A DNA stretch of 64,000 nucleotides from a virus (IMGVR_UViG_3300046477_000550), one strand, 5' to 3'; counted from the stretch's first letter, positions 8,612-64,000 are shown. Program-made: numbers and translations. Notes: generated from the sequence alone by a model not told the origin.

Positions 8612-8620
8612 CCCCTACCG

Positions 8621-29230: not shown

Positions 29231-29271
29231 GGTGGTGTCCTCCTTCAGGTCAGGTCAGGTCAGGGTGCGGG

Positions 29272-29784
29272 TCAGTAGACTTCGTTGAACTGGGCTTTCG
29301 GCTGCTTTACGCCGCCGGGCAGGGCCTTGACGGTTTCGTGGATGCCGCCGTACTCGGACTGGTGGGCGTCACGGACGCCGTTGGCGTTGGCTTCCATGCC
29401 GTCGGCGGCGTTGGCAACTTCGCCGGAGGCTTCGGCAACCCGGTCGAAGGCGGCGGCGACCTCAAGAGCCTGGGCCTGGAAGCGGGCGTCGACGCCGGCC
29501 TGGGCGAGGTGTCCGGCGAGGCGTCGGGCACGCTGCGCGTCGTGGTGCATGCGCGCCTTGAGGAGGTGCAGCTGCTCCTTGAGGATGGCGGCCGCGGCGG
29601 CGAGGGCCATGATGCGCAGGGCGAGGGTGACGAAGTTGAGGATGCCGCTGATGGCGCCTCCCCAGCTCATCCGCTGGGGCTGGTTGTTTCCAGTGGCGGC
29701 CGGGAGGTTGTCGCTGTCTGCGGCGGCAGCTTCGGCGCCGGTCTGGACGGAAGTGGGTTCGATCGCGTTACTGTCGTCGCTCAT
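29272..29784 (-). CDS. membrane/coiled-coil protein
   Basis: ATG at 29784. 170 aa with one TM helix (ISGILNFVTLALRIMALAAAAAIL), then a helical region. Confidence 0.6.
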   Translation of the reverse strand: MSDDSNAIEPTSVQTGAEAAAADSDNLPAATGNNQPQRMSWGGAISGILNFVTLALRIMALAAAAAILKEQLHLLKARMHHDAQRARRLAGHLAQAGVDARFQAQALEVAAAFDRVAEASGEVANAADGMEANANGVRDAHQSEYGGIHETVKALPGGVKQPKAQFNEVY

Positions 29785-29795
29785 CGTCGTCTGCC

Positions 29796-32015
29796 TCAGG
29801 TCTGGTTGTGGATCGGCGCGGAGGGGGTGGTGAGGCCGGCGTCGGCGGTGGCCTGGGTGATGGGCCGGTAGGTGTCGTTGAGGTCGTTGTCTGCGGTCTC
29901 GGACTGTTCTGCTGCTTCGAGGGAGGAGACCTGCATTTCGTCGGACATGCGGGCGACCAGGTCCATGGACTCGGCCATGCGGGCCATCGCGCCGGAGAAC
30001 AGCGGGCCGATGAGGTTGTGGTTGACGGCGAGGTCTTCGGCGAACAGGGCGAGGATGTCGCGGAGTTTGCGGCCGCGGTCGGCGAGCTTGGCGGCCTGGT
30101 CGTGGGTTTTGAATCCGTCGTCCTTGAAGTCGCCGTATTCGTCGAGGGCGTCGTCGAGGTTGATTTCGGTGGCGTGTTGGGCGTCCATGTGGCGGGCGGC
30201 GGTGATGATGCCGTGGCCGGTGCGGGCGGCCTGGTTGCGGGCCTTCGCGATGCGGCGGTCGGGCTTGGCGGGGGGCATGGCGATGGGCTCCTTGGGGCGG
30301 GTGGTGCCGGGGCGGGGCGGGTTCACGGTCGGTGCGGTGTCGAGGGCGGCCGGACCGTTCTTGGGCAGCGCCGGAGTGCCGGTGCCGAGCGCGTCGGGTT
30401 CCCACCGTTTGGCCTGCGCGCCCGGATAGTCGTCGCGTTCGACGGTGATGGTGGCGGCTGCCTGGCCGGCGGCCTGGCCTGCGTTCTGGAAGGGGCTGCG
30501 GCGCGTCCGGCCCGCCGATCCGCCAGGGGCTCCGGCGCTGCCGGTGCCGGTGTTGGTGCCGGTCGGGCCCGTGGTGCCGCCGAAGCAGCCGCCGTTCTTC
30601 CGGGTGCGGGCGCGGGCGTTCGCCCACCACGCGCCGGCCTTCCGTCCGGCATTCCTGAACCGTTTGTTCTTCCGCCGACTGCCGCTTCCCGTCGCGCCGG
30701 GGGCCGCGCCTGGCTTCTTCGGCTTGTTCAGGTTGACCTTCGGCGTACCGCCGTTGCCCGTCTTCGACTTTCCGTTCTTCGGGGCGGACCAGATGGGCGG
30801 GGTGACCGTTTGACGGCGGCGCTTCAGCCGTTTGCGGGCGGCCCGGTGTGCAGCCTTCCGCAGCGCCTGGGCCAGCGTGGTGCGTCCGGCGGCCTGCGTG
30901 TTGCTCTTCCCTGCGGCGGCCCCCGGAGTGGCGCTGCCGGGCCGGCCCGGAGCCTTCGTCAGGTTGACCTTGGCGGGCTGCCCGGGGGCGCCCGTCGGGT
31001 TCTTCGGCGCGTTCTTCTGGCTCTTCTGGCCGCTGCCCCACAGGGCGGGGGTGGCTCCGCCCTGCTTCTGCCGCTTCTTCCAGCGGCGCGCCGCGGCCTT
31101 CTGGGTGTCCTTCTTCAGTGCGGCGCCCAGCCCGGTCCTGCCCGAGCCGCTGTCGCTGCCGCCGTCAAGCTGCTTGCGGCGCTGCTTGTCCAGGCCGGCC
31201 TTCGATCCGGCCTGCGAGTTATGGAGCGGACTCTTCTTCGGCTTCGGCCCGACGGTGGTGTCGGGCTTCTTCGGCTTCGGGCCTGCACCCGGTCCGGTGT
31301 TCTTCCTGCCGGGGCCAAGCCCGTTGGTGCGGGACGACGAACCGCCGCCACGCCCGGACGGGCCCTTACCGGGCGGCTTCTTCCCGCCGCCGCCCGCTCC
31401 CCCACCGCGGCCCGACGAACCGCCGGAACCCCCACGGCCGAGCGCCTTCCCGCCGAACTCGGGACCGGACTGCACACGCTTCGCACGCTGCTGGACGCCC
31501 TTGTCCCGCAGACCCTGCATCGCCATGACGTGCTTGCCGCGCGCCTCCTCCGTCGCCAGCCGCATCTTCATCCGTGCCTCGCGAAGCTGCGCATTCTCGG
31601 CCTCGCGGGCAAGACGGCGCTGGCGCCGGTCCTGAAGGAACGCGTGCGTGCCACGCAGCGCGGCCACAGCAACGGCCAGGCAGGCGGCCAGCGACAGGGC
31701 GCCCAGTCGGGGAACCGCCGAACCGCCGAACCCGCCGTCACTGCGGAAGGTCGCCGGAACATGTCCGGGCTGCGGCCGGGCAGCCGGGGGCGGTACGACG
31801 GGGGCCTGCGCACTCAGGTCGGGAAGCGCGGCCAGCGCGGCAAGGGGACTGCGGCGCGCCCGACGGGCCGGCCGGCCGTCATCCGGAGCCGGCGCCGAGG
31901 GCGGAAAGCTGGGAGCGGGCGGGGCGGTGGGAGTCGTGGTGGGCGGCAGGCGGAAGCCGAGCCGGGGGAAGTTGTAGACGCGCGCATCGCTCTGATCGCC
32001 GGTCGAATCGGTCAT
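29796..32015 (-). CDS. large Lys/Gly/Pro-rich membrane-anchored protein
   Basis: ATG at 32015 with GGAAGGGGG RBS. 739 aa. One TM helix, a coiled coil, about 400 aa of low-complexity basic sequence with many AAG Lys codons (which argues for the true frame), and a helical acidic C-terminal domain. Confidence 0.65.
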   Translation of the reverse strand: MTDSTGDQSDARVYNFPRLGFRLPPTTTPTAPPAPSFPPSAPAPDDGRPARRARRSPLAALAALPDLSAQAPVVPPPAARPQPGHVPATFRSDGGFGGSAVPRLGALSLAACLAVAVAALRGTHAFLQDRRQRRLAREAENAQLREARMKMRLATEEARGKHVMAMQGLRDKGVQQRAKRVQSGPEFGGKALGRGGSGGSSGRGGGAGGGGKKPPGKGPSGRGGGSSSRTNGLGPGRKNTGPGAGPKPKKPDTTVGPKPKKSPLHNSQAGSKAGLDKQRRKQLDGGSDSGSGRTGLGAALKKDTQKAAARRWKKRQKQGGATPALWGSGQKSQKNAPKNPTGAPGQPAKVNLTKAPGRPGSATPGAAAGKSNTQAAGRTTLAQALRKAAHRAARKRLKRRRQTVTPPIWSAPKNGKSKTGNGGTPKVNLNKPKKPGAAPGATGSGSRRKNKRFRNAGRKAGAWWANARARTRKNGGCFGGTTGPTGTNTGTGSAGAPGGSAGRTRRSPFQNAGQAAGQAAATITVERDDYPGAQAKRWEPDALGTGTPALPKNGPAALDTAPTVNPPRPGTTRPKEPIAMPPAKPDRRIAKARNQAARTGHGIITAARHMDAQHATEINLDDALDEYGDFKDDGFKTHDQAAKLADRGRKLRDILALFAEDLAVNHNLIGPLFSGAMARMAESMDLVARMSDEMQVSSLEAAEQSETADNDLNDTYRPITQATADAGLTTPSAPIHNQT

Positions 32016-32136
32016 GACGCCCCCTTCCGGGGTTGACAGGCTGTAGTCGGATCGGGGACCCTCGCGCGCGCGCATCGCGCGCGCGCCTCTGGCCGGTCAT
32101 CACCTCGTTTCCCGGGGGTGATGATGATGAATACGG

Positions 32137-32358
32137 TCACTGCGTGTGACGCTGGTAGAAGTCGTGGAGGTGGGAGGCGAGCTGGTTCGCGACGGCCGGG
32201 TCGCCGTTCTCCAGCGCGTCCTTGGCTAGCTTGCGGGTGACCTCGTACCAGAACCCGACCAAGTGCATCGGGCCCTTCTCGGCCGCCTTCGCCTGCCGGC
32301 CGTTGTAGTGCTCGGTCTGATTCACGAGCGTCTTCCGCGCCTGCCGCGGCGTCGTCAC
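32137..32358 (-). CDS. hypothetical protein
   Basis: GTG at 32358 (GTGA overlap, GGAGG RBS). 73 aa. Confidence 0.45.
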   Translation of the reverse strand: MTTPRQARKTLVNQTEHYNGRQAKAAEKGPMHLVGFWYEVTRKLAKDALENGDPAVANQLASHLHDFYQRHTQ

Positions 32359-32909
32359 AGCGCCTCCGGAAAGTCCACGAAGAGGTCGGCCATGTCCGGA
32401 AGGGACTGCTGCGAGCCGGCCGGCTGTGCGAACTGGTGCGGGTACGGGCTGACGTACTGCGGCTGCGGCGCTGCGTTGACCTGCGGGTTTCCGACCGGCT
32501 GGCCGCCGTTGAAGGCCCGCGCCGATGCGTCCAGAGACTTGGCGACCGTCTCGTGCGCGCCCCCGGCCAGGCCGCGCCGGCTGCGACGCGTCTCGGAGCG
32601 CTCCAGTTCCCGGCGCCGCCGCTCGGGCAGTTCGAGGACTTCCCGCACGTAGACCGCGTTGCAGGCCTCCATCTCGGCGGCGGCGCGCTCCAGGTGGCGG
32701 ATCGCCCTGTTCAGCCGCCGCACCACCTTGGCGGCCCTGCGGCGGGCGTGACCTGCGTTTTTGTCGCCGTCGACATGGGTGTTCTCCAGGCGGGCCTTGA
32801 TGACGTTGGCCATCTGGCGCAGCTCGGAGCCGTCGTTGTTGTACTTGTCGCGCTCGTCCTCGGTCCACGTCCGCATTCCCTGCTGCTTCATCAGGGCGTC
32901 CATGTCCAC
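32355..32909 (-). CDS. hypothetical protein
   Basis: 184-aa ORF with GTG start. Helical, basic centre. Confidence 0.55.
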   Translation of the reverse strand: MDMDALMKQQGMRTWTEDERDKYNNDGSELRQMANVIKARLENTHVDGDKNAGHARRRAAKVVRRLNRAIRHLERAAAEMEACNAVYVREVLELPERRRRELERSETRRSRRGLAGGAHETVAKSLDASARAFNGGQPVGNPQVNAAPQPQYVSPYPHQFAQPAGSQQSLPDMADLFVDFPEAL

Positions 32910-33211
32910 TGCCGGTTCTCCTGTACGTCACTGGTTCCTGGGCTGGTGAGGGCCTTGCGGGTCCGGCAGGTGGGGGCTTCTTCGGCCCCCGCAGCCCGGT
33001 ACTGATGTCCGGGCTGCAGGGGCTGTCGAGGCCTCCTGTCGTTCGGTGTTCGCCTGTCGGATGTGCGCCGGGCCTGCTTGCCGGGTCTGCGAACGTTCCG
33101 CTCACCGGGTCACTCACCGGGGTTGATCTGCTGTTTTGCTGTGTCGACTGCTTCCGGCAGTCTCGGCGAGGACCAGAACCGTGGGGTGCTGGGCCTCACC
33201 GGGGGCGCCGG

Positions 33212-34312
33212 CTAGCTGGTGGTGACGCCGCTCTCGCGGGCTTCGATCGCCTTCCAGGCATGGCGGACGCGCTCCTCGCGGGCCTTGAAGCCGTGCTTGC
33301 GGAACTCTTCCTGCGCCTGCCGGTAGGAGCGCGGGGGCTCCATGCCGTAGCGCAGCCACCGCAGGACCAGGGAGAGCTGTTCGCCGGAGAGCTGCACGCC
33401 CGGCTGGGGAAGGTCCACGCCCGCGATTTCCGCGAGTTCCGGCAGGGTCATGCCGTCCTCGACGGGGGTCTGCTGACCGCCCGTGACCGTGTCCGTTTCG
33501 TCCGGAGTCACGGTCGGGATGGTCACGGCCTCGATTTCCGGCTTGGCCTGTGTGACCACGGTGTGACCATCCGTGCGCACCGGGGCGTCTCCCGCGGCCG
33601 TGACCGCAGGCCGCGCAATGACCACCCCGAGGTCTCGTTGGGTGAACGCCAGGGCCGCAGCGCCGTGCTTCTTGCCGGACTTCTCCAAGCGCCCCTCGGC
33701 CTTGGCGCGGGCCTTGTCGATGCGGGACTGCGCGACGGTCAAAACCCCGGCGCGGGCGATCTGCCGCTCCATCTCCGCGAGATGCGTGGCCGTCTCGACG
33801 AACGCGTCCGTCGTCGCCCCGGACCGCAGATGCCGGGCGTCGGCAGCGGCCAGGGCGCGCTCGTTGCGGTCGGCGGCCGACTGCTCGGCGATCCGGGCCG
33901 CCGTCGGCGCATCCGCCAGCACGTTCCCGGCGAACAGACGCAGCCCCATGAACAGGGCCGCGGCCACGGGCACGAACGCGAACACCTTGGCGTGGCCCAG
34001 CATGAGCAGGATCGTCGACGACAGGCCGACCGCGGCTGCGGACAGGCCCAGCATGACGGCCATGCCGACCGTCGAGCGCTGCCGGATCGCGATCTCCGAC
34101 ATGCGCAGCGAACCGATCCACAGCGCGTCGTACACGATGGCGATCGACCAGGCGACCGCGAGGCCGACCTTGCCGTGCAGGCCGATCATGTGGCCGAGCT
34201 GACCGCCCACCGTGATCGCCACCAGAGCGAGCGAGGCGAGTGTCAACAGCTTCTCAATGACCGCGAACACGTCGATGCGGTGGAGGGCTGTGAACCTGCT
34301 GGAAAAACTCAT
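33212..34312 (-). CDS. 4-TM membrane protein with C-terminal DNA-binding-like domain (DUF2637-like)
   Basis: ATG at 34312 with GAGGAGGG RBS. Four N-terminal TM helices, a helical linker, then a C-terminal MTLPELAEIAGV...LSLVLRWLRYG segment. This architecture is typical of proteins linked to TraB in actinomycete mobile elements. Confidence 0.6.
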   Translation of the reverse strand: MSFSSRFTALHRIDVFAVIEKLLTLASLALVAITVGGQLGHMIGLHGKVGLAVAWSIAIVYDALWIGSLRMSEIAIRQRSTVGMAVMLGLSAAAVGLSSTILLMLGHAKVFAFVPVAAALFMGLRLFAGNVLADAPTAARIAEQSAADRNERALAAADARHLRSGATTDAFVETATHLAEMERQIARAGVLTVAQSRIDKARAKAEGRLEKSGKKHGAAALAFTQRDLGVVIARPAVTAAGDAPVRTDGHTVVTQAKPEIEAVTIPTVTPDETDTVTGGQQTPVEDGMTLPELAEIAGVDLPQPGVQLSGEQLSLVLRWLRYGMEPPRSYRQAQEEFRKHGFKAREERVRHAWKAIEARESGVTTS

Positions 34313-34338
34313 GATCCCTCCTCTCAAGGGATAGACGG

Positions 34339-34593
34339 TCAGAGCTGATTGGGTTCGAGGGAGTAGAAGAGGACGTTGTGGTCGGCGGGCTGTCCAGCCC
34401 TGGCGAGCTGGTCGGAGATGTAGGTGCGGATGCTGTTGAAGGCGTCCCGCCGGGTGTCTCCCGGCTGGGGCGTGAAGGCGCCCTTGAAGGTGAACAGGCC
34501 GACGACGCCGGCCATCTTCTGGGCGGGCTGGACGGTGGCGATCCAAAACAGTTCGGTGGCCGCGGCCTGGGCGGGTGCGGTGGTGGCAGTCAT
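34339..34593 (-). CDS. hypothetical protein
   Basis: ATG at 34593 with GGAGA RBS. 84 aa. Confidence 0.55.
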   Translation of the reverse strand: MTATTAPAQAAATELFWIATVQPAQKMAGVVGLFTFKGAFTPQPGDTRRDAFNSIRTYISDQLARAGQPADHNVLFYSLEPNQL

Positions 34594-34883
34594 CGGGAAA
34601 TCTCCGTTTCCAACTCGGTGACGGTGTTCGTACTGGCAGGCAGCAGAGCGGCAGGCCCGTCGCCCGCAGGAACCGGCTCCGGTGCTCCGTAGAGGCGTCC
34701 AAGCAGCGGATCGGCGGCGAGGCTGGCGCACAGGGTGATCCCGACGACGAACACCCACCGCCAGACCGCACCCATCACGGCAGGCAGCACCTGATGGGTG
34801 CCGTAGCCGACGGATCCGATGAAGGCGAGGTGAAGCAGGGTGACGCCGATCCATCGGGCAGTCGGGCGGCGGGTGCGGGCCAT
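34590..34883 (-). CDS. membrane protein
   Basis: ATG at 34883 with GAGAGGA RBS. 97 aa with two TM helices. Confidence 0.5.
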   Translation of the reverse strand: MARTRRPTARWIGVTLLHLAFIGSVGYGTHQVLPAVMGAVWRWVFVVGITLCASLAADPLLGRLYGAPEPVPAGDGPAALLPASTNTVTELETEISR

Positions 34884-56697: not shown

Positions 56698-58122
56698 TCA
56701 TGCGGCGGCCCGCTGGTCGTTGCTGCCGGCCCGCTCGTGCAGGAGCCGGATGGCGGCGACGGCTTGCCTACGGACGACGCCGTTGCCGAGGGCGCGGAGC
56801 ATGGCGGAGCGGGTGAGTCCGGGGGTGTCGGTGACCCAGCCGTCGGGGAGGCCCATGAGCCATTCGGTGAAGACGGGGCTCAGGCGTCCCAGAGCGTCGG
56901 TTGGCCAGGGGGCTCGTCGTCCGAGGACTGTTTCCCACCGCTGGATGGCGGGTCCGTAATCGCCCCAGTCAAGGTCGGGTTGCCCCGGCCGTAGGTTGAG
57001 GACGTCCTCTCGCTGTCCGCCGCTGTCGGAGTCGGTAGCAGCACTTCGCCCTGCGGCCGGCTGCCGTCCGTTCGTTCCGCGCCCAGTTCGTACATCGTCT
57101 CCGTCGACGATCCGCCCCGGGACGCCCGCGGTGTGGGCAGGAGCTGCGCCACCGCGCTCGGCAGCATCAGGTCCCCCTGGCTGCCGCGCTGGTTCGGGCC
57201 GCCCTTCTCCCTGTCGGACGCCCGGGGCGTCGGAAGCAGCTGCCCGCTGAACACCACATCCGACAGAGTCCAGCCCATGTTCACGTTCGGGTTGTCCGTC
57301 GTGCGGGACGCCGTCGCGTTCCTCGTCCCGTTCGCGTCCCCAGCCATTGGGGTCGGCAGTAGCTTGATCGCATCGACGAGTCCGTCCCCACTGAGCGCCC
57401 GCCCCTTCCCGTCGCGCGCCCGGGGCGTCGGCAGCATCGCTACCGCCGTCCGCAGATCCATGCCGCCGTCCCCGTGCGTCCCCGCCCCGTTGGTGTCCGA
57501 GGTCCGCGGGGTCGGCATCAGCCGGCCAGGCGTAGACGAAGACGCGTTTGCGCTGGTGGGGAGCGCCGACCTCCGACGCTGCGACGCGCGCCCATTCCGC
57601 ATGGAACCCGAGGCCGGCCAGGTCGCCAAGTACGGCTCCGCATGCCCGCAGTAGAGGCCCAGGGTGTCGGTCTCCCACACAGTTCGGGCAGGGTTCCATG
57701 TCGCTGGCAGCCGGTGCTGAGAGGAGCCCTTCGACATTTTCGATGATCACCAATCGTGGTTGGAGGACTGCGATGGCGCGGGCCATGTGGTTCCACAGTC
57801 CGGAGCGGGAATCAGGTACGAGGCCGACTCGCTTACCTGCGGACGAAATGTCCTGACAAGGAAAACCACCGGTGAGAATGTCGACGGGCCCGTGCTCGTC
57901 GAGGACGGCCGGCCAGTCGACTTTGGTGATGTCGCCGAGGTTCGGGACGTTCGGCCAGTGGCGGGCGAGGATGCGAGCGGCGTACTGGTTGGTGTCTTCC
58001 TTGCCCTTCTTGTCGGGCGGCTCGTACTGGGAGTGCCAGAGGACATCGGCGTCGTAGGCGTCCATGACGGCCAGGTCGAGGGCGCCGGTGCCGGTGAACA
58101 GGGAGCCGATTCGGAGCGTCAC
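56698..58122 (-). CDS. DNA cytosine-5 methyltransferase (central part appears to be encoded in another frame)
   Basis: Motif I LFTGTGALD, IV GGFPCQDIS, VI IIENV, VIII QRKRVF, then C-terminal DWGDYGPAIQRWE...EWLMGLPDGWVT...LGNGVV. The target-recognition region reads properly only in the +1 frame (ORF 56880-57737, six LLPTPRASD-type repeats). Confidence 0.8.
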   Translation of the reverse strand: MTLRIGSLFTGTGALDLAVMDAYDADVLWHSQYEPPDKKGKEDTNQYAARILARHWPNVPNLGDITKVDWPAVLDEHGPVDILTGGFPCQDISSAGKRVGLVPDSRSGLWNHMARAIAVLQPRLVIIENVEGLLSAPAASDMEPCPNCVGDRHPGPLLRACGAVLGDLAGLGFHAEWARVAASEVGAPHQRKRVFVYAWPADADPADLGHQRGGDARGRRHGSADGGSDAADAPGARREGAGAQWGRTRRCDQATADPNGWGRERDEERDGVPHDGQPEREHGLDSVGCGVQRAAASDAPGVRQGEGRPEPARQPGGPDAAERGGAAPAHTAGVPGRIVDGDDVRTGRGTNGRQPAAGRSAATDSDSGGQREDVLNLRPGQPDLDWGDYGPAIQRWETVLGRRAPWPTDALGRLSPVFTEWLMGLPDGWVTDTPGLTRSAMLRALGNGVVRRQAVAAIRLLHERAGSNDQRAAA

Positions 58123-58961
58123 GCCGCAGCCCCCAGCCCGGCCTTGGCCGTCTTCTCCTTCTCGGCGCGCTTTGCCCGCCTGGCGATGACGACGTTGAGC
58201 TGGTCGCGGATGTACTTCTCGTTGCCGCCGAGCTGCTTGGCGATCTGCTGCGGGGATTCGTTGAGCAGGTAGAGGTGCTCGATTTCCCGGGTGCGGTCGG
58301 GGTCGCGCCCGTACTTGTCGGCCGGCTTGTACGGCTTTCCGGTCTCAGGCTTTGCGTTGGGGTCGTCGATGGCGGCCCCGTCCCAGGCGGCGGGCCCGTG
58401 CCAGCCTTTTTTGCGGGCGAGGATGCGGCCCCTGTTACTGGGGCCGGGTCGGCGGATGAGGTGCTGGTAGTGGAGGGCGACGGTGTCGGCGGTGGCGATG
58501 CGGACGTGGGCGAGTTCCCCGCGGGCGATGTTGCCGAGTGCGGTCGGGTAGATGCCGAGCTGTGGGGCGAGTTGGTCGATGGGCCAGCCGATGGCGACGA
58601 GGGCGCGGAGCCGTCGCATGGTGCCGGTGGCGTCGACGTCGCGGACGGGGGGCGGTCCGATGGGGACGTTGAGGATGGCGTGGGCGGTGGAGTTGGCGAC
58701 GATCTGCTGCCCTCGGCGGATGTCTCCGATGAGGTGGTGGGCGAGCCCTGCGGCGCGTGCGATCTGGGCTTGGGTCCAGTCGGCGGCGATGAGTCGTTCG
58801 ATGTGGTTGCGGGTCTGGGTGGCATCCATGCGGCGCCGGTGGCCGCGGTGGTGTTCGAGGCGGAGGCGGCTCATGTACCGGTAGTTGGCCCGGCTGCATT
58901 CCGGGAGCGAGCAGCCGCGCTGGTAGCAGCCTCGGCTCGGGATGTGGTCGGCGGCGGTCAC
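58119..58961 (-). CDS. HTH DNA-binding protein
   Basis: 280 aa. N-terminal GCYQRGCSLPECSRANYRY motif, two HTH-like segments (WTQAQIARAAGLAHHLI and IDQLAPQLGIYPTALGNI), and a C-terminal sigma-region-4-like SPQQIAKQLGGNEKYIRDQL. Confidence 0.6.
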   Translation of the reverse strand: MTAADHIPSRGCYQRGCSLPECSRANYRYMSRLRLEHHRGHRRRMDATQTRNHIERLIAADWTQAQIARAAGLAHHLIGDIRRGQQIVANSTAHAILNVPIGPPPVRDVDATGTMRRLRALVAIGWPIDQLAPQLGIYPTALGNIARGELAHVRIATADTVALHYQHLIRRPGPSNRGRILARKKGWHGPAAWDGAAIDDPNAKPETGKPYKPADKYGRDPDRTREIEHLYLLNESPQQIAKQLGGNEKYIRDQLNVVIARRAKRAEKEKTAKAGLGAAA

Positions 58962-59260
58962 GGCATGTCCTTCCGGTGCTGGTCGATGGCGTCGCGGAGT
59001 CGGTCGAGGTCTTCGCAGTCGCCGTAGATGGCGACGCAGTCGAGGTACAGCCCCGCGTCGGTGCCGGGCTGCCGCTGGTTGGCGAGGATGACGGTGACGC
59101 GTTCACTGGCGCCCCGGAGTTCCCGTCGCAGCGCCCACCAGGCGAATCCGGCGGCCACCACTGCGGCGCCGAGCCCGATCCAGTTCCTGCCGAGCCAAGC
59201 CCCGACGGGCTGGAGGTTGTTGCTGGCGGTGAGCCACGCCCCGTACAGGTCCGGGTTCAT
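58958..59260 (-). CDS. membrane protein
   Basis: ATG at 59260. 100 aa with one TM helix. Confidence 0.5.
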   Translation of the reverse strand: MNPDLYGAWLTASNNLQPVGAWLGRNWIGLGAAVVAAGFAWWALRRELRGASERVTVILANQRQPGTDAGLYLDCVAIYGDCEDLDRLRDAIDQHRKDMP

Positions 59261-59412
59261 CGCGGCCCCCCGTTGATGAGGACGCCGAGGCCGCACCAGG
59301 CGGCGATGAGCACGATGGCGGTGATGGCGAGGACGGGCCAGCCGTAGGTGGCGAGCTGGTTGATGTACCAGTCGGCGGGCGCGTTGAGGCCGGTGGCGCG
59401 TTCGGGGTTCAC
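59257..59412 (-). CDS. small membrane protein
   Basis: GTG at 59412 with GGGAGG RBS. 51 aa. Confidence 0.4.
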   Translation of the reverse strand: MNPERATGLNAPADWYINQLATYGWPVLAITAIVLIAAWCGLGVLINGGPR

Positions 59413-59540
59413 GTCCGCCTCCCGCGGTTGTGGCGGGTGGTGGCGCGCCGGTTGAGCACAGCGCCGACGATGACGCCGAGCGCACCGGCGAAGATCAGGG
59501 CGGGCCACACCCACCACAGGTTCGAGAAGACCGTGTGCAT
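59409..59540 (-). CDS. 43-aa membrane peptide
   Basis: ATG at 59540 (TGATG overlap). Reads MHTVFSNLWWVWPALIFAGALGVIVGAVL. Confidence 0.4.
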   Translation of the reverse strand: MHTVFSNLWWVWPALIFAGALGVIVGAVLNRRATTRHNRGRRT

Positions 59541-62089
59541 CACGCCGCACCTCCGAAGAGGTCGGTCATGTACGGCTTGCCGAGGCGGATCTTGCACAGT
59601 TCGGCGTGCGCCGGGTCCTTCTCGATGCCGATGGATTGGAAGCTCTCCAGTCGGCAGGCCTCCAACGTGGTGCCGGAGCCCGCGAACGGGTCGAGGACCG
59701 TGCCCCCCGGCGGGGTGATCAGGCGGACCAGCCACCGCATGAGGGTGAGCGGCTTGACCGTGGTGTGCGCGGTGCCGTCGGCGAGGCGGGGGCGTTCAAC
59801 CTTCGGGGCTTTCGCCTCATACCGGAAGATCGGGAAATACCGGGATGCGCCTCCAGTGTCGCCGTGACCACTGTTGCTGATCTTGCTTCCGGCCGCCTGC
59901 CCCATGATTCCGCCACTGCGCCGCTGCCCCTTCACGGAGCCGGTCGGGCTCGTGCTGACACCGCTCTGCGCGTCCATCTCGGCGACCGGGCACTCGGGCT
60001 GACAGTCCCCGCCGTCGATGCAGTCCGGCCCGTGGCAGAGGAGGATGTTTGTGGGCCAGCGTCCGGCCGCGTGTGCGGAGTCCTCGCGGGTCCCGGTCCA
60101 CTCGCCGAGCGTGTCGCCGTTGCGGGGCGAGGCGATGCCGACGACGGACGCGCACTTCTCGCGGTAGTCCTGGCCAGCCGCGGTCCGGCAGGCGTCCACG
60201 TGGAGTGCTCCGGTGCCGTGTTCGAGCACGTTGGCGACGGTGGTGTTGAAGCCGGTGGACTTGCGGGCGAGGACGATCGGCTCGTGTGCGGGACGGAGCT
60301 GGGTGTTCCAGCCGTGCCACTGCTTGGCGGCATCCGTCGCGGGGAGGGTGACCCGGTCGTCGCCGCTGTAGTCGCCGTAGAGGTGATCGCTCTTGCGGGT
60401 CGGGGCGTTGCGCGTGCCGATGACTTCCCGGAGTGCCCACGCTTCGCCAAGTTCGCCCTTGCGGCCGTTCAACTCTGCGACCAAGGGCCGGATGTCGGTG
60501 TCGTCGAAGCCGAGTTCGTCGCGGAGCCGGTCCCACTGTTCAGGCTGCGGAACAATCGCCGCTTTACCCGGGGTGGTCCACAGCCCGGCCATGCCGTTGA
60601 AACCCCACAGGGCATCGACCTGGGCATTCGTCCACCCGGCGGCGTCCCGGGCAGTAGCCAGCCATGCGGTCACCTGCAAGACCTGCGCCCGGTCGTCGCG
60701 GCGCTTGTCGATGGCCTTGCCGATGTTCTGGCCCTTGGGGAAACCCGAATTGCCAGTGACGAAGACCTTGCCGTTACGACGCGCTACAAAGGCGCCGGTC
60801 GGGACGGTTACGCACCATGCGATTCCGTCGTAGAACTCAGGCTCGATCCGGACCAGATCGGCAGAGGTGAACCGTGAGCCTCGTACAGTTTGTGCTCCCG
60901 GTTGGTCCTGAAGAGCGACAGGTTCGCGAGCGCATTGTTGGTCGGGTTGTGATCCTCGTGGTGCACGACTTCCTGCCGGGTCAGCAGCCTGCCCATCGCC
61001 TGGGCTACGAACAGGCGATGCTCCATCACATAGCCGTCCTTGCGGCTCATGCCCAGGTATGCCGCCGGGCACCGCACGTACTTGATCGCCTTGTAGTTCC
61101 CGCGTCTGCGGGAATAGGTGACCCCGCCGTTCCAACCCGGATTGCTCGGACCGCTCATCCTGGCGGCGTGAGCGGCAGTCGAGGCCTCCGTCCAGTTCGC
61201 CCTTCCGGACCCCGCGATCTCCCGGAGCCGGTCGGCGTCCCGGACGCCCCGGCACTGCCGCGAGCAGGCCGGATTCCGATCGCCTCGTCGCTTGGTCGGC
61301 GACCGCCGGAACGGCTTCTCGCACACCGGGCACGTCAGCAGCGGGCTGGCCTGCCTGTTCGGCTTTCCTCTGTTGGCCGCACTGACCAGCAGGTTCGCGC
61401 ACGCCTTCGAGCAGGTGGTGTTTCGAGTCGTCTGCTCCCTGGTCTGGCAGGGGTAGGGCGTTGAGCAGACTTTGCAGATCTTCCAGTACGGGTACACGCG
61501 CTTGGCGTTCCCGTGCGGCTTCTTGAGCTTCCTGGAAGACGTACTTTCCGCCTCGTTCAACGAGGCAGCGATGCTCTCGGGTGACGAGCTGGTCTGTGTG
61601 ATCGCCAACCAGTCGGTAAGCGGTATCGCTGTACGGGAAGACGACCACGCGCTGGATGGGCTGCCATGAGAACTCGTCATGTTCAGCATCATAGCCAAGT
61701 ACGTGACCTGATTCCTTGGCTTTATGGAATGGCTCCCACTGTCCGTCGATCAGGATTTCCGTCTGCTCGTCGAGGCATCCGTAGATCCAGTGCAGGCTGT
61801 CGCGGATCTCGAATCCAGCGTCCTCGATGGCGCACGTCATACGGTGATAGGTGCGGGTCCCGCCGAATGCGACCAGGTGCCCACCGGGCTTCAGGACGCG
61901 CCAGCAATGCCGCCAGACGTCGACGTTGTAGGCGATGCCGGAGGCGTCCCAGGCCTTGCCCATGAAGCCGAGCTCGTAGGGCGCGTCGGTCACCACGGCG
62001 TCGACGGACGCGTCGGCGAGGGTCGGCAGGATGTCGAGGCAGTCGCCGAGGTGCAGCTGGACGGTGTCGTCCTCGTAGAAGGCCTTCAT
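59540..62089 (-). CDS. N6/N4 DNA methyltransferase interrupted by an intein
   Basis: ATG at 62089 with GGAGGG RBS, so the track ORF up to 62806 is an upstream extension. Motif IV-like VVTDAPY. Motif I VLDPFAGSGTT near the C-terminus. The conserved HWIYG/SGFPKG junction is split by 343 codons. Confidence 0.8.
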   Translation of the reverse strand: MKAFYEDDTVQLHLGDCLDILPTLADASVDAVVTDAPYELGFMGKAWDASGIAYNVDVWRHCWRVLKPGGHLVAFGGTRTYHRMTCAIEDAGFEIRDSLHWIYGCLDEQTEILIDGQWEPFHKAKESGHVLGYDAEHDEFSWQPIQRVVVFPYSDTAYRLVGDHTDQLVTREHRCLVERGGKYVFQEAQEAARERQARVPVLEDLQSLLNALPLPDQGADDSKHHLLEGVREPAGQCGQQRKAEQAGQPAADVPGVREAVPAVADQATRRSESGLLAAVPGRPGRRPAPGDRGVRKGELDGGLDCRSRRQDERSEQSGLERRGHLFPQTRELQGDQVRAVPGGIPGHEPQGRLCDGASPVRSPGDGQAADPAGSRAPRGSQPDQQCAREPVALQDQPGAQTVRGSRFTSADLVRIEPEFYDGIAWCVTVPTGAFVARRNGKVFVTGNSGFPKGQNIGKAIDKRRDDRAQVLQVTAWLATARDAAGWTNAQVDALWGFNGMAGLWTTPGKAAIVPQPEQWDRLRDELGFDDTDIRPLVAELNGRKGELGEAWALREVIGTRNAPTRKSDHLYGDYSGDDRVTLPATDAAKQWHGWNTQLRPAHEPIVLARKSTGFNTTVANVLEHGTGALHVDACRTAAGQDYREKCASVVGIASPRNGDTLGEWTGTREDSAHAAGRWPTNILLCHGPDCIDGGDCQPECPVAEMDAQSGVSTSPTGSVKGQRRSGGIMGQAAGSKISNSGHGDTGGASRYFPIFRYEAKAPKVERPRLADGTAHTTVKPLTLMRWLVRLITPPGGTVLDPFAGSGTTLEACRLESFQSIGIEKDPAHAELCKIRLGKPYMTDLFGGAA
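60749..61777 (-). mobile_element. intein (Hint splicing blocks flanking an HNH module)
   Basis: Starts with CLDEQTEILIDG (block A). LVTREHRCLV is block B (TxxH). Ends with WCVTVPTGAFVARRNGKVFVTGN followed by Ser (+1). Length 1029 nt, or 343 codons. Confidence 0.7.
60808..61698 (-). CDS. HNH endonuclease ORF nested in the intein, +1 frame relative to it
   Basis: Cys4-type CKVCSTPYPC...CPVCEKPF, then the HNH core GYVMEHRLFVAQAMGRLLTRQEVVHHEDHNPTNNALANLSLFRTNREH. Only the part below about 61510 looks like real protein. The N-terminal 60-70 aa of the track ORF is out-of-frame intein sequence. Confidence 0.55.
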   Translation of the reverse strand: MAMMLNMTSSHGSPSSAWSSSRTAIPLTDWLAITQTSSSPESIAASLNEAESTSSRKLKKPHGNAKRVYPYWKICKVCSTPYPCQTREQTTRNTTCSKACANLLVSAANRGKPNRQASPLLTCPVCEKPFRRSPTKRRGDRNPACSRQCRGVRDADRLREIAGSGRANWTEASTAAHAARMSGPSNPGWNGGVTYSRRRGNYKAIKYVRCPAAYLGMSRKDGYVMEHRLFVAQAMGRLLTRQEVVHHEDHNPTNNALANLSLFRTNREHKLYEAHGSPLPIWSGSSLSSTTESHGA

Positions 62090-62445
62090 GCCGCCCTCCG
62101 CTGCTCGGCGCGGGCGTTGATGGCGTCGAGGCGTTCGGGCGACAGCTGGTACACCTTGATTTCCTTGCCGTGGGTGGACTCGGCCGTGGACGGTTCCTCG
62201 CCGACGACGACCACCTGCCGGGGGCTGCGACGCCGCACCAGCGAGTGGAAGAACAGGCCGGCCGTACCGTGGGCGAGTTCGGGCAGCACGGCCCGCAGGT
62301 CGTTGGCACTGAACGGCCTGCCGTCGCCGCCGATTGCGTCGATGGCCTGGTTGAGGAGTGCCTCGTCCCAGTCGGCGACGTTGGCGTAGAGGGCGGCGAG
62401 GGTGGCGTTCGCCTGCTCGCGGGCCTCGGCGGGGGTGATGGTCAT
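62086..62445 (-). CDS. hypothetical protein
   Basis: 119-aa ORF with an ATGA overlap onto the methyltransferase start. Confidence 0.55.
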   Translation of the reverse strand: MTITPAEAREQANATLAALYANVADWDEALLNQAIDAIGGDGRPFSANDLRAVLPELAHGTAGLFFHSLVRRRSPRQVVVVGEEPSTAESTHGKEIKVYQLSPERLDAINARAEQRRAA

Positions 62446-62936
62446 GAGTACGCTCCGATCCGCTCAAGGAGGGGCCCGGAGTCGAGCCGCCCGTCTTCGT
62501 CTTCGAGGGCGGAGAGGCTGTGGCAGCGGGCGCACAGCTGGATCTCCTTGAACTCCATCCACCCGTCCGGCATCCAGGAGAAGGACCACAGGGGGCGGGT
62601 CTGGGAGCAGCGCCCGCAGCGCCCTTCGGGCGGGGTGATGGGCGGCTTCGGCCCGCGCTCGTGCAGTGCGGCCACCGCGGCGGCCGTGTCGGCGAGAACC
62701 CCGACGAGGTGCGCGGCGTGGCCGATGCATGAGTTGCACCAGGACAGGCCCTCGGGCGGTTCGGCGGGGATCGGTTCGAGGATGACGGCCGGGGACTGGG
62801 TGACACCCCAGCCCGGGGTGCCGCACAAGCCCTGCTTGCCTGCGAACTTGCCGTCCTCGCGCATCACGTGCAGGCGGCGGACCTGCTTGGCGCGGCGGCC
62901 CGTGGCGGCGTTGTAGCCGCGGTAGAAGGCCCTCAC
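62442..62936 (-). CDS. Cys-rich hypothetical protein
   Basis: 164 aa with CNSCIGH, CGRC and CARCH motifs. Confidence 0.55.
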   Translation of the reverse strand: MRAFYRGYNAATGRRAKQVRRLHVMREDGKFAGKQGLCGTPGWGVTQSPAVILEPIPAEPPEGLSWCNSCIGHAAHLVGVLADTAAAVAALHERGPKPPITPPEGRCGRCSQTRPLWSFSWMPDGWMEFKEIQLCARCHSLSALEDEDGRLDSGPLLERIGAYS

Positions 62937-63208
62937 GTCGCCCTCTGATCTGCCTGTTCGAAGCAGTCGCAGTCGCCGATGACCTGGCCGGAGCAGACGT
63001 GCTCACCCAGCGGGGTCCCGGTGTCGGCGTGCAGCCGGTACGTGTCGAGGAGGCCGTCGATGATGTGCGCGGCGATCGGGTCGGCCTGCTCGCGCTGGTC
63101 GCACAGCCAGTGGTCGAATGCGTCGCCGCGGCGGGGTGGCGGGGTGAGGTCGTAGCCGGGGCCGGTGCGGGTGAGGCCCGCGAGGACGCGGCGCCAGAGG
63201 CTGGTCAT
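62933..63208 (-). CDS. hypothetical protein
   Basis: ATG at 63208 (ATGA overlap). 91 aa. Confidence 0.5.
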   Translation of the reverse strand: MTSLWRRVLAGLTRTGPGYDLTPPPRRGDAFDHWLCDQREQADPIAAHIIDGLLDTYRLHADTGTPLGEHVCSGQVIGDCDCFEQADQRAT

Positions 63209-63534
63209 CGGGCACCGCCGGCGAGTTCGATGGTGCGACCGGTGTGGCCGATGTCGGTGGCCCAGTGGTTGCGGTCGCCGCTGCATGCCGGGACGGGGCC
63301 GAGTGTCGGGCCGAGGGTGACGAAGCCGCGGTTGATTGCCTCGTCGAGGGTGGTTCGCTGGAACGTCCGCAGGTGGGCGTAGGGCCCTTCGGTGCCGTTG
63401 TGGAGCTCGGAGACGATCAGTGCGGCGTACTGGCTGTCGCGCTTGATGTAGCAGGGGCGCCCGAATGTAGAGCGGAAGCGGAGCAGGTCGATCAGCTCCT
63501 GGATGGCTGGGCGGATGTCGAACTTCCTTGCCAT
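63205..63534 (-). CDS. hypothetical protein
   Basis: ATG at 63534 with AAGGAGA RBS. 109 aa. Confidence 0.5.
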   Translation of the reverse strand: MARKFDIRPAIQELIDLLRFRSTFGRPCYIKRDSQYAALIVSELHNGTEGPYAHLRTFQRTTLDEAINRGFVTLGPTLGPVPACSGDRNHWATDIGHTGRTIELAGGAR

Positions 63535-63600
63535 GGCGTGGTCTCCTTGGTGACGCCGGGGCGCGCGCATTACGGGTGCGCACGCCCCGGACTGGGTGGG

Positions 63601-64000
63601 CTAGAAAGGCGGGTCGGACGGGTCGCGGCCGAGGGTGATGTCGCTGATCTGCTTCTCGATGTCGCCGGTGAGGTCGGCGCCCGCGTGCTTCAGGGCGAAG
63701 GTGATCGTCTGGCCCACGCCCTGGGCGTCCCCTTTGCTGAGGAGCGCGGCGGCCAGGTATTCGACGAGGACCCGGCGGACGGGCTCGGGGATCTGGCTGG
63801 TGACGTCGGGGGTGGCCGCCCACGGGTCACGCTCGGGGGCTGCACCGGCGCGGTCGTTGGCGTAGCCGATCCATCCACCGCTGCCCGCCGGGGCCTTGTA
63901 GGCGGAGCGGGGGTCCCAGCCGTTGTCTCCGAGCCAGCCGTCGACGAGGTCGTCCATGTTGCAGTGGGCTTCGTCGAGCGCCTTGGTGAGGTCGATGGCC
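63601..64000 (-). CDS. hypothetical protein (5' end probably beyond window)
   Basis: The track ORF starts at ATG 63957, but there is no RBS there. The same frame stays open to 64000 with G/C at 13 of 14 third positions, so the gene probably starts upstream of the window. Confidence 0.5.
   Translation of the reverse strand, partial: AIDLTKALDEAHCNMDDLVDGWLGDNGWDPRSAYKAPAGSGGWIGYANDRAGAAPERDPWAATPDVTSQIPEPVRRVLVEYLAAALLSKGDAQGVGQTITFALKHAGADLTGDIEKQISDITLGRDPSDPPF

Follow-up and report, generated by a model that had tools for sequence, protein, structure and literature searches.

INTRODUCTION

Inteins whose homing endonuclease is encoded in a separate frame have been described in actinobacteriophages, and they were proposed to have originated when a free-standing endonuclease gene invaded an intein (Gosselin, Arsenault and Gogarten, bioRxiv 10.1101/2025.01.02.630785). 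An endonuclease outside the extein frame has also been reported for a cyanobacterial dnaX intein in a 2026 preprint. N6/N4 methylases of mycobacteriophages can harbor a hidden HNH endonuclease in another frame, the ShiLan domain (Arsenault, Gosselin and Gogarten, Genes 2025, PMC11855218), and mycobacteriophage DNMT inteins with LAGLIDADG endonucleases have been described as well (Kelley et al. 2016, PMC5050341); intein insertion in an N6/N4 methylase is already known from these phages. In-frame HNH inteins have been reported (Dalgaard et al. 1997), as have fractured genes, in which split inteins have a free-standing endonuclease gene between their halves (Dassa et al. 2009, PMC2677866).

Here, we analyzed a viral DNA of 64,000 nucleotides (IMGVR_UViG_3300046477_000550; the window). 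In the reading that we favor and consider likely, a phage methyltransferase is interrupted at YG/SGFPK by an intein with Cys at position 1, within which a complete, separately made HNH gene is nested in the +1 frame. An initial annotation had suggested that such an arrangement would be new, a suggestion superseded by the out-of-frame intein endonucleases and the hidden HNH in the same methylase family published in 2025. The HNH/methylase-intein family itself, its breadth, and the overlap with block B appear to be unreported in the literature.

RESULTS

The interrupted methyltransferase gene

The precursor is an 849-amino-acid ORF (59540 to 62089, minus strand, like all features below) whose translation comprises an N6/N4 DNA methyltransferase and an intein. 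It starts at an ATG (62089-62087) with GGAGGG just 5′, stops at a TGA (59542-59540), and matches Pfam N6_N4_Mtase strongly (PF01555; E = 7.5e-28). Recomputed coordinates agree with the initial annotation that the methyltransferase is split by a 343-codon insert, running from 61777 down to 60749 and a multiple of three in length. The N-extein (61778 to 62089; 104 codons) ends in ...DSLHWIYG and shares 35-82% identity with N-exteins at related loci, and the C-extein (59540 to 60748; 402 codons plus the stop) begins with SGFPKGQN. Their ligation is predicted to yield a methyltransferase of 506 amino acids. Motif IV (61976 to 61987) reads DAPY in place of DPPY, as noted earlier and verified here; the canonical form is (D/N/S)PP(Y/F/W), and among the relatives 92 have DPPY and 1 has DVPY. 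By its Pfam profile the protein is a predicted methyltransferase, although with this DAPY motif it may be inactive.

A predicted Hint domain in the methyltransferase frame

The insert (60749 to 61777; 1,029 nt) extends from Cys1 to Asn343 and is followed by Ser+1. Its first codon is TGC (61777-61775; CLDEQTEILIDG) and its last is AAT (60751-60749; ...KVFVTGN). It interrupts YG/SGFPK, which relatives carry uninterrupted as YGSGFPKS. Intein blocks A, B, F, and G and a penultimate Gly had been proposed from the sequence, and all of these motifs were verified in the translation: blocks A and B lie in an N-terminal lobe (residues 1-110; 61448 to 61777), where block B reads VTREHRC and contains the TxxH motif (T66-R-E-H69), and blocks F and G lie in a C-terminal lobe (residues 295-343; 60749 to 60895; ...WCVTVPTGAFVARRNGKVFVTGN). 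C1, S/T66, H69, C322, T341, G342, and N343 were invariant in 54 unique relatives, and Ser+1 is likewise invariant in the family. The usual penultimate His is missing, its place taken throughout the family by Gly342; a mycobacteriophage intein with a penultimate Gly has been reported to splice efficiently (PMC5050341).

AlphaFold2 predicted an all-beta N-terminal lobe (pLDDT 86-98) and a C-terminal lobe with pLDDT 74-96, separated by a host-frame linker (residues 111-294; 60896 to 61447) without secondary structure (pLDDT 40-58). The Hint-fold match that had been set as a test was found: in a Foldseek search of the PDB, the model scored best against inteins, Hedgehog Hint, and BIL domains, and mini-intein and Hint chains gave target TM-scores of ~0.45-0.59. 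Neither Pfam intein models nor a PDB sequence search picked up the Hint domain, which is therefore identified from motifs and predicted structure; given the confident AlphaFold2 fold, residues 1-110 plus 295-343 are predicted to be a Hint domain. The linker is rich in G, R, A, P, and Q (27, 23, 21, 20, and 19 of 184 residues, respectively), in keeping with the Arg/Gly/Pro/Gln-rich middle described earlier, and is a predicted disordered segment, the product of reading through the HNH gene out of frame.

Position-1 Cys, TxxH, Asn followed by Ser, and the modeled Hint fold suggest that the insert is a class 1-type intein. Class 3 inteins are defined by the lack of a position-1 nucleophile and by B:12 Trp, F:4 Cys, and G:5 Thr (the WCT triplet). 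This class was rejected for the insert, which has Cys1 and in which B:12 is occupied by Cys or Val instead of Trp (block numbering aligned by eye from PMC5050341). As a side observation, the insert does resemble the WCT triplet at two of its three positions, with an invariant Cys322 in block F and Thr341 at G:5.

Homologous Hint lobes occur at the same site in phages StAnnes, Atcoo, and ShiLan, where they carry an in-frame LAGLIDADG endonuclease. Many mycobacteriophage methylases cover ~57% of the query, suggesting that these are insert-less alleles.

An HNH gene between the Hint lobes

The +1 frame of the insert contains an HNH homing-endonuclease ORF (60808 to 61692) of 294 amino acids, counted from the ATG at 61692 to the TAA at 60810-60808; candidate alternative starts are TTG 61698, ATG 61689, and ATG 61680. 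Taken from 61698 (60808-61698, 296 amino acids), the ORF matched Pfam HNH_3 over residues 227-269 (PF13392; E = 1.1e-5; 25.4 bits, cutoff 24.8). The HNH identity proposed earlier for this ORF thus held, while the single Cys4 cluster described with it turned out to be two: zinc ribbon 1 (C73, C76, C94, C98; 61399 to 61476) and zinc ribbon 2 (C121, C124, C143, C147; 61252 to 61332). Across 48 homologues, the first three cysteines of each ribbon were invariant and the fourth, C98 or C147, was conserved in at least 90%. The catalytic core (60880 to 61152; NPGWNGG...VVHHEDHNPTNNALANLSLFRTNREH) contains H244, H245, N257, and H267, invariant in 48 HNH sequences. We found 201 HNH homologues, most of them precomputed as PF13392 and one of them an identical 294-amino-acid gene call in a Logan contig.

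The AlphaFold2 model of the HNH protein (mean pLDDT 85.7) comprises an N-terminal helical region, the two Cys4 zinc ribbons, and the HNH_3 core. Residues 21-55 are modeled as helical at pLDDT 94-96, a high value that could be inflated by the conservation that Hint block B imposes. Searched against BFVD, the model matched phage HNH and homing endonucleases (E down to 7e-11, probability 1.0); against the PDB it gave no significant global match, with I-HmuI at a probability of 0.47.

Selection acts on two overlapping frames

The first zinc finger lies ~50-70 codons into the HNH ORF, which shares ~55-80 codons with the Hint N-terminal lobe, block B included, and ~25 codons with the C-terminal lobe. 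In the 5′ dual-coding zone (intein codons 46-100; 61478 to 61642), block B in frame 0 lies over the HNH N-terminal helices in frame +1; in the 3′ overlap (60808 to 60895), the unconserved HNH tail and its stop lie over the start of C-lobe coding. The +1 frame stays open from intein codon ~46, with 3 stops observed in codons 51-100 versus ~86 expected. Host wobble entropy in the dual-coding zone was 0.57-0.81 of the stop-free shuffle expectation; the values elsewhere were 0.97 (codons 1-15 and 31-45) and 0.77 (codons 16-30).

The wobble frame changes twice along the intein: the wobble position is host position 3 in codons 1-70 and again from about codon 311, and HNH position 3 between them. In the window, host-frame wobble GC is 0.92 and 0.87 in the exteins, and within intein codons 101-305 GC is highest at host position 1 (0.85), the third position of the HNH codons. 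Host position 1 varies the most within the linker, where the consensus residues of the host frame reach frequencies of just 0.23-0.5. The initial annotation had placed frame changes at about 61500-61545 and 60858-60885; dominant selection does switch there, but the HNH ORF begins further upstream.

Synonymous-codon shuffles of the window HNH predicted 5.0 stops in the methylase frame and were stop-free in just 0.3% of cases, versus 0 stops observed in the host frame across the HNH. Across 80 loci, shuffles predicted 2.7-17 host-frame stops per locus and none was seen. T-ending codons, which ahead of AA/AG/GA codons would produce a methylase-frame stop, were found there in 0 of 4,567 cases, and elsewhere in 2,802 of 11,509 (24%). 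We conclude that the frame-0 Hint lobes and the +1-frame HNH gene are each under purifying selection, and that selection holds frame 0 stop-free across the HNH gene and the +1 frame open from codon ~46.

Candidate starts of the HNH protein

Of the 54 inteins, 26 have a +1-frame ATG at codon 47 and a further one has it at codon 45; codons 29-33 are the other recurrent position. A Shine-Dalgarno 5-mer preceded 12 of the 27 ATGs at codons 45/47 (6.2 expected), a count reached by none of 500 shuffles, and several loci have a +1 stop shortly 5′, at codons 41-45. Intein-less relatives mostly have an ATG 9-13 codons ahead of the first CxxC, often with a GGAG-type Shine-Dalgarno sequence. The candidate starts in the window are preceded, 13-20 nt upstream, by a weak Shine-Dalgarno-like AGGT or AAGGAA.

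The layout is widespread and the intein is probably mobile

Relatives were searched for frame switching, as had been proposed, and showed the same +1 layout: the methylase frame was open across the HNH in 78 of 80 IMG/VR relatives of the HNH, in 18 of 22 genome or MAG loci from many phyla, and likewise in a deposited 484-kb phage. These 78 IMG/VR loci span a GC content of 0.28-0.71 and have open methyltransferase frames of 415-1,191 codons; their third frame is broken, with open stretches of mostly 3-94 codons. In phage LR756508.1 (41% GC), the site and the Hint blocks are the same, and the HNH is in the same +1 frame. Overall, the layout recurs in ~100 independent contigs with ~40-60% HNH amino-acid identity. 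The intein family is almost only metagenomic, with a GC content of 28-71% and a spread over many phyla. Because more than 100 unrelated phage and metagenome sequences keep the layout, we conclude that it is maintained by selection and reject sequencing error.

The HNH lineage occurs in several states at one methylase hot spot: inside the intein, inserted directly and read through, as an interruption that splits the gene, antisense, and as a neighboring free-standing gene. About 20 relatives (class B) lack a Hint domain and have a member of the same HNH family placed directly within the methyltransferase frame. Neither the intein-less nor the free-standing relatives have the HNH N-terminal helical region, which may therefore have originated by overprinting on the intein. 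In four pairs of loci, nucleotide identity was higher in the intein (97.5, 89.5, 87.6, and 87.2%) than in the flanking exteins (60-84%), suggesting ongoing transfer; dual coding may contribute to this difference. In the window, GC3 is 0.64-0.71 in the Hint domain versus 0.87-0.92 in the exteins.

Alternative explanations

Two apparent frame changes in a single window, in an insert with a length divisible by three, are what a pair of compensating indels would produce, and the initial annotation had entertained such a pair, as an assembly error or as decay. That an artifact displaced an ordinary in-frame HNH intein has next to no probability: the same +1 offset recurs in the ~100 diverged, independent contigs, an in-frame HNH version was found in none of 104 loci, and host-frame stops are avoided by codon choice in all 80 loci. 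The Logan assembly of run SRR26076578, moreover, matches the window at 100% over 7,193 nt, although it may derive from the same source. Decay of a once in-frame HNH intein, frameshifted and eroding with a nonfunctional HNH and linker, would account for the motif-less middle of the host frame, and endonuclease loss is known for inteins. It is nevertheless very improbable, given that the HNH frame is under purifying selection (wobble at HNH position 3; catalytic and Cys residues invariant or at least 90% conserved), that nearly all loci have an intact HNH ORF, and that the inteins are more alike than their exteins, as expected of continuing transfer. A free-standing HNH gene nested in an intein, the other option raised at the outset, fits the layout, the predicted Hint fold, and the selection on both frames, except that the HNH ORF extends beyond the linker into block B.

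Other readings accept the layout and differ in how it is expressed. Programmed +1 frameshifting could fuse the N-extein and N-terminal Hint lobe to the HNH or, with a shift back, give a conventional HNH intein; the +1 frame is open from codon ~46, far 5′ of the conserved zinc finger, and many high-GC members, the window among them, lack a strong Shine-Dalgarno sequence at their +1 ATGs. However, ribosomes leaving frame 0 would have no need of a host frame that is stop-free across the entire HNH gene, the recurrent +1 ATGs with Shine-Dalgarno enrichment and a nearby +1 stop in several members point instead to initiation, and an RF2- or antizyme-type +1 site is impossible because frame 0 has no stop codon; we regard frameshifting as quite improbable. 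The Hint domain might also be inactive and the 343 residues retained as a tolerated loop, as has been proposed for the ShiLan domain. The class B relatives show that read-through inserts are tolerated near the site, and the penultimate His is lacking here. Yet a nonsplicing insertion is unlikely: none of the splicing residues (C1, S/T66, H69, N343, and Ser+1) varies among the 54 diverged inteins, purifying selection maintains the Hint lobes, the insert breaks up YGSGFPK, a conserved motif, and the mycobacteriophage intein mentioned above splices efficiently with its penultimate Gly. Finally, HNH genes are frequent in phage group I introns, but a group I or II self-splicing intron in place of an intein is scarcely conceivable where Rfam gave no family match (E up to 1), a confidently predicted Hint fold is encoded in the host frame at both ends of the insert, and selection holds that frame open.

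DISCUSSION

Our preferred model is thus that of an intein with a nested, separately made HNH protein. The two Hint halves would be translated in the methyltransferase frame, with the HNH gene between the lobes, where canonical inteins have their in-frame endonuclease. Ribosomes in the methyltransferase frame would traverse the HNH gene and produce a stop-free, disordered linker of ~185 residues, and the Hint domain would then excise itself and ligate the exteins into the 506-amino-acid methyltransferase. The HNH protein (~294 amino acids) would arise by internal initiation at a +1-frame ATG within the sequence encoding the Hint N-terminal lobe and would cleave intein-less methyltransferase alleles near the YGSGFPKS coding sequence, with repair copying the intein and HNH gene jointly. 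In this model, we infer the splicing activity, the HNH start site, the HNH expression level, and the cleavage target.

The arrangement may plausibly, if not quite probably, represent an old and stable two-gene partnership rather than a short-lived intermediate; three features speak for partnership, namely the dual-coding segment, which would have co-evolved and in which block B and the HNH helices are both selected, the lack of these helices in intein-less and free-standing relatives, and the several states of the HNH lineage at one methylase hot spot. Together, these states offer a natural series for testing the invasion of inteins by endonucleases and the origin of bifunctional inteins.

Like canonical bifunctional inteins, the window insert has a predicted Hint fold with blocks A, B, F, and G and is inserted in a conserved motif of a DNA-modifying enzyme, and, as is common among phage inteins, its penultimate residue is not His. 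Whereas the canonical endonuclease is a domain of the intein polypeptide, that of the window is predicted to be a separate polypeptide from an overlapping ORF, leaving the intein with a disordered linker. Fractured genes (Dassa et al. 2009) similarly place an endonuclease gene outside the intein polypeptide, between its N- and C-terminal parts, but there the host is in two ORFs joined by trans-splicing, while the window has a continuous host ORF with overlapping frames.

ShiLan gp65 is a methyltransferase of the same family that can be aligned with the window protein, and its own intein occupies the identical YG/...TGN/SGFPKS site, although that intein has an in-frame LAGLIDADG domain in place of the out-of-frame HNH. 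The ShiLan domain, as in the window, is of the HNH_3 type with zinc fingers in another frame, across which the host frame is stop-free. It differs in site (after ...VAVKP/Y versus YG/S) and frame (−1, the third frame, versus +1), and it has no Hint domain, whereas the window insert has a predicted one; its authors expect no splicing of the ShiLan domain. When deposited phages were searched by tblastn with the window HNH (E up to 1e-5), ShiLan was not among the matches. The class B metagenomic relatives (~20) are the closer analogue of the ShiLan state and fit its definition, unlike the window insert.

The inteins of the 2025 preprint share with the window a Hint domain in the extein frame, a same-strand endonuclease gene in another frame at the usual endonuclease position, and an extein frame without stops. 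The out-of-frame case of the preprint is endonuclease VII-like and in frame 3, versus HNH_3 with two zinc ribbons in frame 2 (+1) here. Its hosts are DNA polymerase, minor capsid, large terminase, and thymidylate synthase of PhagesDB actinophages, in contrast to the N6/N4 methylase of the window, and the methylase inteins that it includes have canonical endonucleases only. With its predicted Hint domain in the extein frame, its endonuclease ORF between the lobes, and its stop-free extein frame, the window falls within the definition of an intein with an out-of-frame endonuclease.

The methylase precursor and its insert

The methylase precursor is encoded on the minus strand of the window, from an ATG at 62089 to a TGA at 59540 (849 aa; Pfam N6_N4_Mtase, E 7.5e-28), and is interrupted between …DSLHWIYG and SGFPKGQN… by an insert of exactly 343 codons (61777 to 60749, minus). 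The insert begins with CLDEQTEILIDG, contains the block B motif VTREHRC, and ends with …WCVTVPTGAFVARRNGKVFVTGN followed by Ser; an intein-less methylase junction for this locus would read …CACTGGATCTACGGA|TCGGGTTTCCCCAAG…. An HNH ORF lies within the insert at 60808-61698 (minus), in the +1 frame relative to the methyltransferase, with a Pfam HNH_3 match just over the curated cutoff. When we rederived the ORFs, insert, and motifs, the split methylase with an out-of-frame HNH described in the initial annotation proved correct in every element, as did the G/R/A/P/Q-rich middle of the insert in the host frame. Also borne out was DAPY in methylase motif IV (61976 to 61987, minus), where the sequence is DPPY in 92 relatives and DVPY in one; judged from this substitution, the window methyltransferase may have altered or reduced activity.

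The locus sits in a phage-like region (69% GC) with genes for the large terminase, portal, major head protein, and DnaB. A near-identity DNA search with the locus and 20 kb of the window found no match among 50,697 deposited phages, so the window appears to belong to a high-GC phage lineage that has been poorly sampled. The locus gave no matches in promoter, terminator, and Rfam scans. Elsewhere in the window, in an ORF adjoining the portal gene (7145-8614, minus), the N-terminal 150 to 175 residues match RNA-ligase PHROGs and the C-terminal part matches a portal-protein PHROG, an unusual combination for a head-gene region. Three large ORFs at 26996-34774 (minus; 752, 766, and 520 aa) had no PHROG match at E values up to 1e-5.

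The insert flanks form an intein splicing domain

Pfam detected no intein domain in the precursor or in 61 homologues, and phmmer found no match to the intein in the PDB. In the AlphaFold2 model (built with 48 homologues), intein residues 1 to 110 and 295 to 343 form an all-beta domain (10-residue block pLDDT means of 74 to 98, mostly >93), and residues 111 to 294 are without secondary structure (pLDDT 40 to 58). Searched against the PDB with Foldseek, this model scored best with inteins, Hint domains of Hedgehog proteins, or bacterial intein-like domains; among these matches were the AceL NrdHF split intein (E 4.7e-5), the Hedgehog structure 6tyy, and the Ssp DnaE intein. A Hint-fold match, on which the initial annotation had made its reading depend, was found by AlphaFold2 together with Foldseek. 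Across 54 unique inteins, Cys1, Ser/Thr66, His69, Asn343, and Ser+1 are invariant, and so is the penultimate Gly. A mycobacteriophage intein with a penultimate Gly splices efficiently, and changing this Gly to His slows splicing (PMC5050341). The modeled fold and the invariant residues indicate that the insert flanks are a real intein, which is predicted to splice.

Two further residues are invariant across the 54 sequences: block F Cys322 (about 60812 to 60814) and Thr341 (about 60755 to 60757), which precedes the terminal Asn by two residues. The pair is reminiscent of the C and T in the WCT triplet of class 3 inteins, yet Cys1 is present and position B:12 is not Trp. The best Foldseek match of the window intein is a class 3 split intein, and the window intein may not splice by a purely class 1 route. 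Mycobacteriophages StAnnes, Atcoo, and ShiLan carry homologous Hint lobes at the identical site, with an ordinary in-frame LAGLIDADG domain; the endonuclease module has thus been exchanged within one intein lineage.

The out-of-frame layout recurs in independent sequences

The initial annotation had left room for an assembly error as the source of the frame changes. A Logan assembly of run SRR26076578 is 100% identical to window positions 56808 to 64000 over 7,193 nt, although it may share its source with the window; gene calls on this contig gave the same 294-aa HNH ORF and a truncated methylase. Comparative evidence against an artifact is stronger. The 484-kb uncultured phage LR756508.1 has the methylase, insertion site, and Hint blocks as in the window at a GC content of 41% (5.2-kb locus examined), and its HNH, with only 41% amino acid identity to that of the window, is nevertheless also in the +1 frame. 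An IMG/VR scan with the HNH protein gave 112 relatives, and 80 loci were retained for frame analysis. In 78 of these (GC 0.28 to 0.71), the frame relative to which the HNH is +1 runs open through the entire HNH gene, for 415 to 1,191 codons; the third frame is broken, with open stretches mostly of 3 to 94 codons. Among genome and MAG loci of many phyla, 18 of 22 have the window's layout. A search of 104 loci for relatives whose HNH shares the intein frame found none; the only long HNH-frame ORF, on Curtobacterium pusillum plasmid pCPAA3, was rejected, being a free-standing HNH downstream of an uninterrupted methylase. Frame switching in relatives, which the initial annotation had proposed to look for with profile and sequence searches, is present across IMG/VR, genome, and MAG loci, and its recurrence in these sets and in LR756508.1 shows that the layout is no assembly artifact.

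Selection acts on both reading frames

The number of stop codons expected in the methylase frame was estimated by shuffling synonymous codons within each HNH gene, preserving protein and codon usage. These shuffles predicted 2.7 to 17 stops per locus, and zero were observed in all 80 loci; for the window HNH gene, 5.0 were expected and 0.3% of shuffles were stop-free. A host-frame stop requires a T-ending HNH codon followed by a codon starting AA, AG, or GA. T-ending HNH codons occurred at 0 of 4,567 positions in such stop-creating contexts, compared to 2,802 of 11,509 in other contexts.

Variability was then compared frame by frame in codon alignments of the 54 unique inteins. Host position 3 is the most variable in intein codons 1 to 70 and 311 to 343, and host position 1 (HNH position 3) is the most variable in codons from about 101 to 305. 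In the intein middle, the consensus residue frequency is 0.4 to 0.88 in the HNH frame versus 0.23 to 0.5 in the host frame. The window by itself also shows this wobble switch: GC at host position 3 is 0.92 and 0.87 in the exteins, and in codons 101 to 305 it is 0.85 at the first host position and 0.56 at the third. Codon choice thus indicates that selection is acting on both the host and HNH frames.

The HNH gene probably begins within the Hint coding sequence

The protein collection contains 201 homologues of the 294-aa +1 product, most of them called as separate genes of 220 to 320 aa. In an alignment of 48 sequences, His244/His245, Asn257, and His267 are invariant, and of the eight Cys in two Cys4 clusters, six are invariant and two are conserved at ≥90%. 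The AlphaFold2 model (mean pLDDT 85.7) matched phage HNH and homing endonucleases in BFVD (E down to 7e-11). Against the PDB, Foldseek with the whole model gave no significant global match, and all that phmmer found were weak matches to ribosomal protein L4, attributable to chance. Residue conservation, the fold model, and the BFVD matches indicate that the +1 product is a real endonuclease, with cleavage predicted.

The +1 frame stays open far upstream of the first zinc finger. Intein codons 51 to 100 contain 3 +1-frame stops versus about 86 expected, and codons 1 to 50 contain 116 versus 98 expected. Host wobble entropy in codons 46 to 100 is 0.57 to 0.81 of expectation, a constraint beyond stop avoidance alone; elsewhere this ratio is 0.97 (codons 1 to 15 and 31 to 45) and 0.77 (codons 16 to 30). 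HNH residues 21 to 55, matching the codon 46 to 100 zone, are predicted to be helical (pLDDT 94 to 96; AlphaFold2). Of the 54 inteins, 26 have a +1-frame ATG at codon 47 and another has one at codon 45; a Shine-Dalgarno 5-mer (AAGGAG, for example) lies ahead of 12 of these 27 ATGs, where 6.2 were expected and 0 of 500 shuffles reached 12. Several loci have a +1 stop just upstream of the recurrent ATG. In the remaining inteins, +1-frame ATGs recur at codons 29 to 33; those of the window are at codons 29, 30, and 33 (61692, 61689, and 61680), with only a weak Shine-Dalgarno-like sequence. Two other general starts were considered and rejected, a GTG seven codons before the first CxxC and a TTG at intein codons 72 to 73: the GTG is not conserved, and the open +1 frame is maintained for about another 25 codons upstream. 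We conclude from these sequence patterns that translation of the HNH protein probably initiates internally and independently. A stretch of about 55 codons (61478-61642) appears to be dual coding, encoding parts of two folded domains at once.

Other states of the HNH family and transfer of the cassette

In about 20 related loci, here called class B (L048, L054, L055, L058 to L060, L062 to L068, L070, L076, L077, L079, L080, L082, L096 to L099, and L104), the methylase reads YGSGFPKS uninterrupted, with no intein. Their HNH is shorter, without the helical region and first zinc ribbon, and is nested, in the +1 frame, straight in the variable loop of the methylase, about 10 to 15 codons downstream of YGSGFPKS, just after YGSGFPKSxN. 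Most of these HNH genes have an ATG of their own, in many cases preceded by a GGAG-type Shine-Dalgarno motif, and the host frame stays open. At a further locus (L061, 2155-3664), two ORFs make up the methylase, one on either side of a free-standing HNH that has an ATG of its own; at another (L045, 1868-4006), an antisense HNH lies between N- and C-terminal methylase fragments, near the YG/SGFPKS region. On plasmid pCPAA3 (L102, 1706-3756), a shorter, uninterrupted methylase of the window's family is followed directly by a related HNH gene, which may represent a free-standing ancestral or escaped state. These states tie the HNH family to one methylase-gene region, where it is accommodated in several ways, and a neighbor-joining tree of the 95-residue HNH core, built without support values, hints that they have switched more than once.

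In four locus pairs, nucleotide identity is 87 to 97.5% in the intein versus 60 to 84% in the flanking exteins. GC3 in the window is 0.64 to 0.71 in the Hint lobes versus 0.87 to 0.92 in the exteins (60749-61777 versus 59543-60748 and 61778-62089), and intein GC is 63% versus 69% for the window. The identity gap and low Hint GC3 fit a recent horizontal transfer of intein and HNH together; dual coding may account for part of the identity gap as well. The GC values suggest that the window cassette is a fairly recent acquisition from a source of lower GC.

Implications for annotation and intein evolution

The nested intein/HNH arrangement is real. That it works as a methylase intein with a nested, separately made HNH is, in our judgment, quite probable; we infer splicing, HNH expression, and the cleavage target. 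The arrangement supports a view of inteins and homing endonucleases as separable partners, in which free-standing endonuclease genes colonize existing inteins. The out-of-frame state can last across very large divergence and is not quickly resolved by an indel. It also provides a clean natural example of overlapping genes, in which selection on each frame is readable directly from codon choice. Gene callers split or truncate related loci, giving an HNH gene and a truncated methylase (as in the Logan contig, L084) or a methylase without an intein domain (among homologous proteins P0001 to P0061), and precomputed Pfam annotation of the homologues contains no intein family for any; such elements are thus systematically overlooked or misannotated in phage and metagenome annotation. 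For engineering, the modeled Hint domain is compact and apparently tolerant of a 185-residue disordered insert.

Comparison with published systems

The principle of an out-of-frame endonuclease is already known, from the ShiLan domain and from actinophage inteins described in 2025. The ShiLan domain is an HNH concealed in the third frame of mycobacteriophage methylases of the window's family (PMC11855218); unlike the window insert, it is without a Hint domain and is located at another site. Mycobacterium phage ShiLan gp65 combines two elements in one gene, a LAGLIDADG intein at the window's YG|SGFPKS site and, downstream of it after …VAVKP, the ShiLan-domain HNH in the -1 frame. Class B loci are ShiLan-like in state but differ in site and frame. 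Among actinophage inteins, endonucleases have been described in another frame or on the opposite strand, the same-strand case being an endonuclease VII-like gene in frame 3; the hosts are DNA polymerase, minor capsid, large terminase, and thymidylate synthase, and the secondary ORFs are described as typically lying outside the splicing domain (10.1101/2025.01.02.630785). The title of a 2026 preprint refers to a cyanobacterial dnaX intein with an out-of-frame endonuclease. Relative to the ShiLan and actinophage-intein papers, four features appear to be unreported: an HNH_3 gene in the +1 frame of a methylase intein, the wide metagenome distribution of this HNH/methylase intein, the overlap of the HNH with splicing block B, and its co-occurrence with intein-less states of one HNH lineage.
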